Shown here one piece after another: positions 1 through 2,253 of a DNA stretch of 64,000 bases. The DNA lies in assembly GCA_963746845.1 (NCBI GenBank), contig CAVVCZ010000004.1:832001-896000 (forward strand), written 5' to 3'. The notes below the pieces were generated by a model. That model worked only from the letters and a program-made list of their open reading frames with translations, was not told where the DNA came from and searched no databases. The translations under genes and the position numbers were made by a program. Each line of letters opens with the position of its first letter. Positions within the stretch are counted from its first letter, which is position 1. Source of the stretch: an uncultured Chloroflexia bacterium (GTDB taxonomy: Bacteria > Chloroflexota > Limnocylindria > Limnocylindrales > CSP1-4).

Positions 1-2253
1 GTCGTCCTCGACGTTGATCTCGGTCTGGGTCTCCTCCTGGATCTTGCGGATCATCGAACCACCCTTGCCGATGATCTCGCGGATCTTCTCGGGGTTGATC
101 TTGATCGTGGTGATGCGCGGCGCGAAGTCGCTCATCTGGCCACGGGACTCGGGCATGACCTCGACCATCTTGTCGAGGATCTGGAGGCGTGCGTCGAGGG
201 CCTGCTTCAGGCCGTCGCGGATGATCGCCTCGTTGATGCCCTGGACCTTGATGTCCATCTGGAGGGCGGTGATCCCGTCGCGGGTCCCGGTGACCTTGAA
301 GTCCATGTCACCGACCGAGTCCTCCTTGCCGAGGATGTCGGTCAGGACGACGAACCGGCCGTCGGGCTCGCTGATCAGGCCCATTGCCGCGCCGGCGACC
401 GGAGCCGTGATCGGGACGCCCGCGTCCATGAGGGCGAGCGTCGAGCCGCACGTCGAGGCCATCGAGGTCGAGCCGTTCGAGGACATGCACTCCGACACGA
501 GCCGGATGACGTACGGGAACTCGTCATGGGGCGGGAGCACCGGAATCAGCGCCCGCTCGGCGAGGTTGCCGTGGCCGATGTCCCGGCGGCTCGGGCCGCG
601 CATGGGCTTGTTCTCGCCCGTGGAATAGGGCGGGAAGTTGTAGTGGTGGATGTACTGCTTCTCGGTCTTCGGGCTGATCGTGTCGATCCGCTGGACGTCC
701 GAGGACGAGCCCAGCGTCGCGATCGTCATGACCTGCGTCTCGCCGCGGGTGAAGAGGCCGGAGCCGTGGGCGCGCGGCAGCAGGCCGACCTCGACCGAGA
801 TCGGGCGGAGCTCCGTCGTCCCGCGTCCGTCCATCCGGATCCCCTCGTCGAGGGCCAGGGCGCGACACGTCTTCTTGAAGACGAGGTTGTAGAGGCTCTT
901 GCTGACGCGGGCCTTGCGGCGCGCGGCATCGAGCTTCGTCTTCGCCTCGTCCTTGGAGGTCCGGTTGGCCCGGACGGAGTCGGCGATGTCGTTCTTCAGC
1001 GTCGCGATCCGGCCCGGCAGGTCGTTCGCGAACCAGATCAGCAGGTTGGCGGTCGCCTCGGCGTCCGGCAGCGCGCGGTGGTTCTGGGTCAGGTCGACCC
1101 CGAAGAACGCCGCGAGCGTGTCGAGCTTGTAGTTCTGGAGGTCCGGATAGCCCTCGCGGGCGATCGTCAGCGTGTCCAGGAACCGGCCCGCATCGTAGTG
1201 CGCGGCGCTCCCGCCCGCCTCCTCGAGGAAGCCGAGGTCGAACGTGACGCTGTGGCCGACGACGAGCGCGTCACCGATGAAGTCGACGGCCTGCCTGGCC
1301 GCCTCCGCCGGCGACGGCGCCTTCGCGACGTCCTTGTCGGTGATGCCGTGCATCTGGTTGCCGAGGATCGGCTGCGACGGCTTGACGAACGTCGACCAGC
1401 GGTCGGTGATCTTGCCGCCCTTGACCTTGACGACGCCGATCTCGAGGAGATCCGACATCTTCGGGTCCGTGCCGGTCGTCTCGACGTCGACGATCGCGAA
1501 CTCGCGCTTGGCGTCGACGGCGGCGACGAAGTCGAGGACCGAGCCCGTGCCCGGCTCGAGCGACGGCGTGAGCTTGGGCTTGCCGACGGCCTCGCGGAGC
1601 TGCTCCTGGATGTCGATGAGCGGCTGGAGCGCGCGGTGGCCGAACAGGATCGCCTCGGCCATGACGTCCTCGGGCAGGAGCTTGGCGCCCGCCTCGACCA
1701 TCATGATCGCGTCGCGCGTGCCGGAGACGATCAGGTCGAGCTCGGACTCCTCGACCTCGCTGTAGGTCGGGTTGACGACGAACTCGCCGTTGATCCGGCC
1801 GATCCGCACGGCGCCCACGGGCCCGGCGAAGGGGATCTCGCTGATCGACAGCGCGGCCGACGCGGCGACGGTCCCGATCACGTCGGGCTCGTTCTCCTGG
1901 TCGGTCGAGAGGACCGTGATGACCAGCTGGATGTCGTCCTTGTACCCCTCGGGGAACAGCGGCCGGATCGGGCGGTCGGTCAGCCGGGCGGCGAGCGTCG
2001 CGGCCTCGGAGGCGCGCGCCTCGCGCTTGATGAAGCCGCCCGGGATCTTGCCCGCGGCGTACATCCGCTCCTCGAACTCGACCGTGAGCGGGAAGAAGTC
2101 GAGGCCCGGGCGCGGGTCGGACCGGTTGGCCGTCCCGAGGACCAGGGTGTCGCCGTAGCGGACGGTGACCGCGCCGCCGGCGAGTCGGGCGAGCTTGCCC
2201 GTCTCGATGGTCAGGGTGCGACCACCGATCTGTGTCTCGAATGTCTGAGACAA
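1..2253 (-). CDS. pnp: Polyribonucleotide nucleotidyltransferase (PNPase) with inserted DEDDh exonuclease domain; 3' end runs off the window
   Basis: Manual translation from TTG at 2253 (SD GAAGGAGG): [36 protein letters not shown]...[27 protein letters not shown]...RMDGR...[12 protein letters not shown]...SNGSTSMAS...[11 protein letters not shown]...IIGKGG (KH). No stop codon before base 1, which is why the ORF track missed it. Lies downstream of rpsO. Confidence 0.97.
   Translation of the reverse strand, partial: [751 protein letters not shown]

Follow-up and report, generated by a model that had tools for sequence, protein, structure and literature searches.

PNPase is among the most studied of RNA-decay enzymes, and its plan of two RNase PH-like domains (PH1 and PH2) separated by a helical domain and followed by KH and S1 is treated as universal. 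What, then, is a second nuclease doing in the middle of the pnp gene of an uncultured Chloroflexia bacterium? The gene lies at the start of a 64,000-nucleotide stretch of DNA (contig CAVVCZ010000004.1, positions 832,001 to 896,000), called the window here, in which an initial annotation made from the letters alone had read a DEDDh exonuclease domain in frame between PH1 and PH2. On the evidence given below, this is a lineage-wide exception to the plan, carried by the sole housekeeping PNPase in hundreds of species' genomes and predicted to add a second catalytic chemistry to the enzyme.

A DEDDh domain inside the PNPase linker

The pnp gene occupies the minus strand from a TTG start at 2253, in a frame that stays open up to window base 1. 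Since S1 lies beyond the window start, the window covers only 751 of the 863 residues; the other 336 coding bases (the last 112 codons, for the end of KH and S1) and the stop codon were read in the source genome, G000 (L001:1162-3753), a metagenome-type assembly of 12 contigs that is 92% complete. With the full protein, Pfam found RNase_PH twice (E 4.8e-53), RNase_PH_C, RNase_T, KH_1 (715-772) and S1 (778-849). The PNPase plan, in which KH and S1 come after a tandem pair of RNase PH-like domains, is therefore present, and the order PH1-DEDDh-PH2-KH that had been proposed was borne out in a single open frame. The window part alone also passed both PNPase equivalog models, TIGR03591 (809.5 bits, cut-off 525.05) and NF008805 (809.3 bits, cut-off 471).

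TIGR03591 aligns in two pieces, residues 8-231 with profile positions 1-225 and residues 425-751 with positions 263-589. The 37 positions in between (226-262), at the start of the helical domain, are unmatched, and 193 residues (232-424) occupy their place; this is the "shortened helical segment" of the initial annotation. The protein thus lacks the uninterrupted, all-helical PH1-PH2 linker of PNPase, and the same profile matches an insert-less relative (L033) end to end. The parts of the gene, with the evidence for each, are as follows.

1..2253, minus strand: pnp coding sequence, residues 1-751 of 863 (open reading frame (ORF), Pfam, NCBIfam)
1561..2253, minus strand: PH1, residues 1-231, ending at the conserved GKPK (Pfam RNase_PH/RNase_PH_C, TIGR03591, alignment)
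1507..1560, minus strand: linker and short helix ahead of the exonuclease domain, residues 232-249 (helix 237-247; AlphaFold2 (AF2) models, alignment with insert-less relatives)
1018..1506, minus strand: predicted DEDDh (DnaQ/PolC/DinG-like) 3'-5' exonuclease domain, residues 250-412 (Pfam, AF2 domain model, Foldseek, phmmer)
1480..1488, minus strand: Exo I, D256-V-E258 (sequence; D and E invariant in 155/155)
1237..1254, minus strand: Exo II, H334-S-V-T-F-D339 (sequence, alignment)
1063..1080, minus strand: Exo III, H392-R-A-L-P-D397, at the start of the long helix 394-429 (sequence; H and D invariant in 155/155; both models)
844..1017, minus strand: remaining PNPase helical linker, residues 413-470 (end of helix 394-429, then helices 434-448 and 452-470; AF2; TIGR03591 resumes at position 263, residue 425)
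154..843, minus strand: PH2, residues about 471-700, with SNGSTSMAS and GDMDFK (Pfam RNase_PH 481-614, invariant columns)
1..117, minus strand: start of KH, from residue 713 (Pfam KH_1 715-772 on the full protein)

The insert itself matches Pfam RNase_T (PF00929) at residues 254-405 over profile positions 2-164 of 164 (E 2.5e-26; 93.6 bits against a gathering cut-off of 24), and the span first given for it, 1030-1500, corresponds to residues of about 251-408, that is, to the DEDDh domain. The motifs DVE, HSVTFD and HRALPD were read in window coordinates exactly where they had been placed (D256/E258, D339 and H392/D397), and together they form the DEDDh signature of D-x-E in Exo I, D in Exo II and H-x4-D in Exo III. 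These five residues are kept in relatives without exception, being invariant in 155 of 155 fusion sequences with insert identities of 38-94%, a set of 120 database representatives, 34 locus sequences and the query that are related rather than independent. Such invariance over so wide a range of identity is expected of catalysis, as modules that only bind usually lose some of the residues. Residue 335, within Exo II, is Asn in 86 of the 155 sequences, Ser in 68 (as here) and Ala in one. Ratios of nonsynonymous to synonymous substitution (dN/dS) for the exonuclease domain were 0.13 and 0.22 in the two closest pairs of family f1, 0.11 in f2 and 0.16-0.18 in f4 (the families are described below), with 0.06-0.18 for the PH cores; dS is high or saturated in distant pairs, and close pairs alone are reliable. 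Judged from these comparisons of sequence, the exonuclease domain is under purifying selection, with dN/dS well below 1.

By sequence and by modeled fold, the insert is DnaQ/PolC/DinG-like and apparently not RNase T/Orn-like, which supports the first half of its original description as "DnaQ/RNase T-like" and speaks against the second. The closest NCBIfam models were the "DEDD exonuclease" PRK07883 models, the PolC exonuclease and the DinG head (115-130 bits), with the DinG model NF005981 at 117.8 bits and not passed (cut-off 789). The epsilon models scored about 70-77 bits and failed their equivalog cut-offs (TIGR01406, 76.9 against 222.7; NF004316, 72.1 against 196); the domain-level model TIGR00573 was passed (77.6 against 71.5 bits). 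In a phmmer search of PDB sequences, the T. maritima PolC exonuclease (8.4e-25) and S. aureus DinG (1e-18) were matched along with further PolC, Cas2-DEDDh (6e-14 to 2e-13), DnaQ and epsilon chains. No RNase T or Orn chain was found in that search at E<=1e-5, and no RNase T or Orn model stood among the best 25 of the 38 NCBIfam matches. Foldseek with the domain model returned S. aureus DinG, PolC, Pol III epsilon and ExoX, RNase T following from rank 16 (24-25% identity). The matches to DinG and PolC had E values of 1e-11 to 3e-10 at 28-34% identity, and a probability of 1.00 to DinG, PolC, epsilon, ExoX and RNase T places the modeled domain in the RNase H-like alpha/beta fold. Pfam found no helicase domain in the 863-aa protein.

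The phosphorolytic motifs of the host had been called intact, and the alignment agrees. In PH2, S592, N593, G594, S595, S597-S600, D645, D649, M650, D651 and K653 are invariant across 40 sequences that include insert-less relatives (alignment A1), and the stretches concerned (SNGSTSMAS and the GDMDFK region) are taken here to be the phosphorolytic catalytic motifs. GC content is 0.68-0.71 across the insert, the same as in its flanks. The gene is also the sole PNPase of G000, the other match being an RNase PH-like gene of 31% identity.

The AF2 models of the full protein (predicted local distance difference test score, pLDDT, 78.5; predicted template-modeling score, pTM, 0.70) and of the exonuclease domain (pLDDT 90.3) agree on the layout of helix 237-247, the alpha/beta exonuclease fold, helix 394-429, helices 434-448 and 452-470, and PH2. 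In both, one long helix (394-429) starts at the His and Asp of Exo III and continues unbroken into the linker, so that the two catalytic modules would be rigidly coupled. With the full model, the top Foldseek matches in the PDB were all ordinary PNPases (chains of 482-730 residues, E down to 5e-63). In the passages that a study of E. coli PNPase devotes to the helical domain (PMC2723993), this domain is found across the torus from S1/KH, on the other face, contributes to activity and lines a side pore to the active site, where it is thought to affect the passage of nucleoside diphosphates (NDP) and phosphate. Because the insert sits in the helical linker, this position predicts three DEDDh domains on the face opposite KH/S1, beside the side pore, in agreement with the face that the initial annotation had chosen. 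As a separate observation on the monomer model, PH1 residues 46-106 (window about 1936-2118, minus strand) are highly conserved yet have a pLDDT of 24-43. This part probably needs the trimer or RNA for order, and the low value is no sign of disorder in vivo.

Distribution and origin of the fusion

A metagenome-type assembly of 12 contigs could, through an error of assembly or gene calling, have joined a pnp gene wrongly to a dnaQ-like gene, but here the chance of this is negligible. The same uninterrupted frame occurs in other species of genus g1 (80-96% identity), in family f2 (66-68%), whose genomes are of 1.0-1.4 Mb, and in 5/5 genomes of family f4 (query 5-861, 60-62%). A search of the protein database with the insert gave 1363 matches at E<=1e-3, to proteins of 474-1511 aa, and the best 120 of them all carry both PF00929 and PF01138. 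Moreover, the two junctions are bridged by short contigs from four independent runs of four studies (X1 and X2, DNA; X3 and X10, RNA libraries), that near 1020 by X1 record 1 (DNA, one mismatch), X10 records 9 and 10 and X3 record 25, and that near 1560 by X2 records 23 and 24 (DNA), X10 records 13 and 14 and X3 record 28. Among the listed contigs, none covers the whole 1201-base stretch. The recurrence of the frame in many genomes, together with these contigs, rules out a chimeric assembly, and the position of the insert inside a domain rather than between genes and the congruence of its tree with that of the core also stand against an artefact.

A pnp match that is split or carries a stop in G005, G009, G034 and G038 is the other point that would favor an artefact. 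In G005 there is one TAG and a break near residue 233-236, and split loci were recorded at G005:C2:937853-940100, G009:C11:123651-125898 and G034:C31:1694-3882; these are probably sequencing frameshifts in few-contig assemblies. The apparent skips among the listed contigs are single contigs at 85% likeness, none of which is taken as a variant of this gene. One low-likeness DNA contig of X2 links 793 to 1572, leaving out the linker, insert and helices almost exactly, which is the pattern expected of an insert-less PNPase from another organism in the sample.

The architecture was found again in relatives, namely in three families (f1, f2 and f4) of one Chloroflexota class that the sources label 'Candidatus Limnocylindrales'. 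This fusion lineage belongs to soil and freshwater Chloroflexota, and protein-atlas clusters with both domains are likewise commonest in that phylum. A survey with the insert alone covered 301 genomes of the class at E<=1e-10, other genomes of the phylum being outside its scope, and matched 91/91 in f1, 12/12 in f2 and 99/103 in f4, in frames of about 860-1050 aa; weak matches came from f3 (84/92, 1e-11 to 1e-25) and f5 (2/2). A junction-spanning query (residues 190-300) was run against 401 genomes of the phylum and matched 23/23 in f1, 4/4 in f2, 17/17 in f4 and 0/2 in f3. It covered the junction in 0/356 of the phylum's genomes outside f1, f2 and f4, and two f11 matches reach no further than the tail of PH1, the frames there being ordinary ones of about 760 aa. 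G000 itself matches in both surveys. The sister families f3 and f5 have an ordinary, insert-less pnp of 734-739 aa in 5/5 genomes examined, and their weak DEDDh match is a separate frame of about 900 aa; a contiguous, insert-less PNPase was found in a further 33/33 outgroup genomes. The tallies include some genomes flagged as unpublished (G010, ten in the insert and DinG surveys, and G362), on which no conclusion hinges.

Among the best 150 database representatives, no PNPase-DEDDh fusion of independent origin was found in other phyla, and the 26 that are PH-flanked all have an insert identity of at least 48%. With 12,077 matches at E<=1e-10, this look at the best 150 is of course not an exhaustive survey of architectures. 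A partial protein labeled 'Candidatus Acidoferrum sp.' (P0021) is 85% identical, and its name is probably a binning label. In fact, names vary widely in the sources, including 'polyribonucleotide nucleotidyltransferase', 'exonuclease domain-containing protein, partial' and 'DNA polymerase III epsilon subunit family exonuclease'.

In a careful tree of 126 DEDDh domains, with a bootstrap that had not converged (correlation 0.927), all PNPase inserts form one clade (ultrafast bootstrap/SH-aLRT 100/96) in which f4 is sister to f1 and f2. In a tree of the PNPase core, from which the linker and insert columns had been removed, the fusion proteins again form one clade (SH-aLRT 100) with the same order, ((f1,f2),f4). 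With one clade in each tree, the insert entered the gene a single time, before the three families separated, and has diverged with its host since. As for a source, the careful tree places three small stand-alone DEDDh proteins as sister to the insert (94/91) and the DinG heads of the class with other DinG heads. A quick tree did not show an origin from a DinG head, and an approximately unbiased (AU) test against that tree did not reject one (p 0.84); the DinG-head-constrained tree was 58.6 log-likelihood units (lnL) better than the quick tree, which means that the quick search was poor. The careful tree has an lnL of -32764.2 against about -32786.4 for the constrained one, a value obtained by subtraction with no formal comparison. 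A short protein, P0129 (215 aa, from a contig of 125 kb), also falls within the insert clade. Its alignment spans insert residues 238-429 and so takes in the linker that is specific to PNPase; P0129 may result from a gene call that was split, or may be the insert in free-standing form.

Possible roles of the insert

The reading preferred here is that the sole PNPase of these bacteria is a two-chemistry 3'-5' exonuclease whose hydrolytic module trims the 3' ends of single-stranded RNA (ssRNA). The whole statement, RNA substrate included, is given a probability of about 0.5. That the insert is an active exonuclease is, from its sequence, very probable; that RNA is the main substrate is about an even bet. 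A DnaQ/PolC/DinG-type DEDDh domain inside the first part of the helical linker of a complete PNPase would, with the usual trimeric ring presumably formed, provide three hydrolytic, phosphate-independent sites opposite the KH/S1 entry for RNA and next to the side pore that leads to the phosphorolytic site. There the hydrolytic module would trim ssRNA 3' ends captured by the PNPase scaffold where phosphorolysis is poor or slow, as might be the case when phosphate is low or when the remnants are short.

What favors RNA is the host, a sole PNPase with KH and S1 intact. The RNB domain of RNase II/R was found in none of five class genomes (G000, G016, G025, G043 and G044), and the RNase D-type domain PF01612 was not found above cut-off in the same five; among processive 3'-5' exoribonucleases, PNPase seems to be the chief one in this class. 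The neighborhood of pnp also bears on the question. Gene order around it is nusA-ylxR-infB-rbfA-DHH/DHHA1-truB-ribF-rpsO-pnp, in which the rpsO-pnp arrangement is the canonical PNPase context, and two of these genes matter here.

2370..2639, minus strand: rpsO (ribosomal protein S15), directly upstream of pnp (Pfam Ribosomal_S15, E 6.2e-35)
4436..5452, minus strand: DHH/DHHA1 (NrnA-like) gene in the same cluster as pnp (Pfam DHH and DHHA1)

Two side observations belong to the same region. The ribF-like ORF (window 2752-3498, minus strand; 248 aa) has FAD_syn at residues 16-166 and no flavokinase domain at E<=1e-5, and may be an FMN adenylyltransferase-only form or one whose kinase part has diverged. 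On the strand opposite pnp (window 1-2373, plus strand) there is an open frame of 790 aa, a shadow ORF of the kind usual for genes of 70% GC; nothing marks it as a gene.

Several points weigh against the preferred reading. The nearest characterized relatives of the insert (the PolC exonuclease, the DinG head, Pol III epsilon, ExoX and Cas2-DEDDh) act on DNA. A small NrnA-like DHH gene, for a nanoRNase, lies near pnp in 5/5 genomes, with or without the insert, so that finishing short oligomers is no obvious need; this weakens both the oligomer-finishing role offered by the initial annotation, whose interpretation held for architecture, pentad, motifs and face, and the idea that the insert replaces a missing nanoRNase. 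Replacement of a missing RNase II/R was also considered, and it does not discriminate, as RNB is absent from the insert-less sister families too (G044) and its absence is no explanation for the gain. Geometry raises another difficulty: with the insert opposite the RNA entry, a 3' end held at the PH2 site would be excluded from the hydrolytic site unless the RNA passes through or binds separately. The same side of the balance holds the Ser in place of the usual Exo II Asn (here and in 68/155), the saturation of dS in distant pairs, and the X3 and X10 contigs, which attest presence in an RNA library and are not proof of transcription.

The nuclease repertoire of the class brings in another candidate substrate. 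In f3 and f5, a DinG-type helicase of 893 aa carries the DEDDh domain as its N-terminal head. Among 121 genomes, each at least 85% complete, the helicase part of DinG was present in 38/38 of f3 and 1/1 of f5, and was found in 1/36 of f1 (weak, in a 2041-aa frame), 0/5 of f2 and 1/40 of f4 (a 107-aa fragment at a contig end). No DinG helicase was found in G000, where only the PNPase insert matches the head (44% identity). Within the class, the DnaQ-type nuclease is thus carried either by DinG or by PNPase. G000 has no PF00929 domain besides the insert, and one such domain per genome was also counted in G016 and G043 (within PNPase in both) and in G044 and G052. With the insert as the only PF00929 match, no separate dnaQ gene for Pol III epsilon was found in G000, and replicative proofreading there is presumably carried out by another domain, such as DnaE PHP. 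A second, small RNase_T-family gene was seen in one f2 genome (G025:C2:301392-301853; 206-aa frame, 57.8 bits), and several f2 genomes have weak matches to the insert at about 30% identity.

This complementarity of DinG and insert, which had escaped the initial annotation, raises the possibility that the hydrolytic module acts on DNA or RNA-DNA hybrids, PNPase having assumed, as a nucleic-acid-binding platform, the function that the exonuclease head has in DinG, so that 3' tails of single-stranded DNA (ssDNA) would be trimmed and the RNA strand of R-loops removed at stalled forks. Besides the distribution of the two domains, the single PF00929 domain per genome and the 44% identity to the head, this alternative has in its favor that the nearest solved relatives of the insert act on DNA and that an origin from the DinG head of the class was not rejected against the quick tree. 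As described in the part of a DinG study that concerns these activities (PMC12525004), the DEDD head of B. subtilis DinG degrades ssDNA 3'-5', degrades the RNA strand of hybrids and removes R-loops, with PNPase as another processor of 3' tails. The complementary pattern, however, is one evolutionary event and not many independent ones, the careful tree puts the insert beside the stand-alone proteins and the DinG heads elsewhere, f2 retains its extra small DEDDh gene, and RNA decay is the main known role of the host protein. DEDDh enzymes, moreover, often act on RNA and DNA alike; S. aureus DinG is reported in the same study to degrade ssRNA. A DNA or R-loop role is therefore held only tentatively, as a serious but less likely account than trimming of RNA.

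A quite different account keeps the fold and residues but gives up the chemistry, making the insert a regulatory or binding module, either a lid on the side pore or a sensor of 3' ends or nucleotides that tunes phosphorolysis. The insert does replace part of the domain that, in the E. coli passages cited above (PMC2723993), lines the pore for NDP and phosphate; in the models, the helix of Exo III passes into that of the linker without interruption, and the Exo II Asn has given way to Ser in 68/155. All five metal-binding and general-base residues are nevertheless invariant in the 155 sequences over 38-94% identity, which makes a purely regulatory module improbable. Trimming of ssRNA 3' ends by an active hydrolytic module accordingly stays the preferred, if evenly balanced, reading.

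Comparison with known systems

A full-text literature search found no description of the PNPase-DEDDh architecture, and in the main text of a 2026 comparative-genomics paper on the class (PMC13212565) the terms PNPase, polyribonucleotide, exonuclease and DinG do not occur. The fusion proteins are in the databases already, under inconsistent names, which makes the finding a matter of annotation as well. If the domain is active, it would offer a handle on the role of the poorly understood helical domain and side pore, and the DinG complementarity would allow the link that has been proposed between PNPase and the processing of DNA or R-loops to be tested concretely.

With canonical PNPase, as solved from E. 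coli, C. crescentus, S. antibioticus and M. tuberculosis, the protein shares PH1, helical linker, PH2, KH and S1, an identity of 35-41%, a score above the equivalog cut-off and the rpsO-pnp context. It differs in that the solved PNPases found have 482-730 residues and no nuclease insert, whereas here 193 residues, including a 163-residue DEDDh domain, stand in for 37 profile positions. Another pairing of PNPase with a DEDDh exonuclease in one RNA-decay pathway is that of human mitochondria, where the PNPase-SUV3 degradosome is reported to work with the DEDDh enzyme REXO2 (PMC7261184, PMC6521605). That such a partnership in trans is known counts in favor of RNA as the substrate here. The mitochondrial enzymes are separate proteins and REXO2 is Orn-like, whereas here one polypeptide carries a DnaQ-like domain and an NrnA-like gene lies nearby.

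By structure and sequence, the insert is best matched by the DinG head (S. aureus DinG, 8zef and 9ii8; B. subtilis DinG) and the PolC exonuclease (2p1j, 9qrn). The PolC exonuclease is, like the insert, a DEDDh domain inside a host enzyme (matched at profile positions 421-636 of 1445). The host here, however, is a phosphorolytic RNase and not a helicase or polymerase; no helicase core occurs in the protein or in G000, and the insert is not nested among DinG heads in the careful tree. Cas2-DEDDh (8fy9, 8fyc) similarly joins a DnaQ-like DEDDh domain to a non-polymerase host, but as a terminal fusion that serves CRISPR spacer trimming, in contrast to the internal insertion into PNPase.

The comparison that reaches furthest is with the eukaryotic RNA exosome, in which a PH-like ring with an S1/KH cap is served by the hydrolytic nuclease Rrp44 and the DEDD nuclease Rrp6. 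The exosome ring is catalytically dead and its nucleases are separate subunits. A PH ring, an S1/KH cap and a hydrolytic 3'-5' nuclease would be common to both systems, the insert resembling Rrp6 in fold class and Rrp44 in its predicted position across the ring from the cap. As Rrp44 is located at the exit of the channel, it would be a closer parallel by position than Rrp6, to which the initial annotation had likened the insert. One could go further and picture a bacterial exosome with an active ring, which hands substrate captured by KH/S1 to either the PH2 site or the exit-face DEDDh site and in which a nuclease moved from DinG onto PNPase joins RNA decay to the clearance of R-loops and 3' tails, but this fuller picture is speculative and, taken whole, unlikely. 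Should the domain be active, bacteria would nonetheless have in this PNPase a natural equivalent of the exosome, in which a PH ring is likewise paired with hydrolytic nucleases; the difference is that the PNPase ring retains the phosphorolytic motifs and has its nuclease built in covalently.

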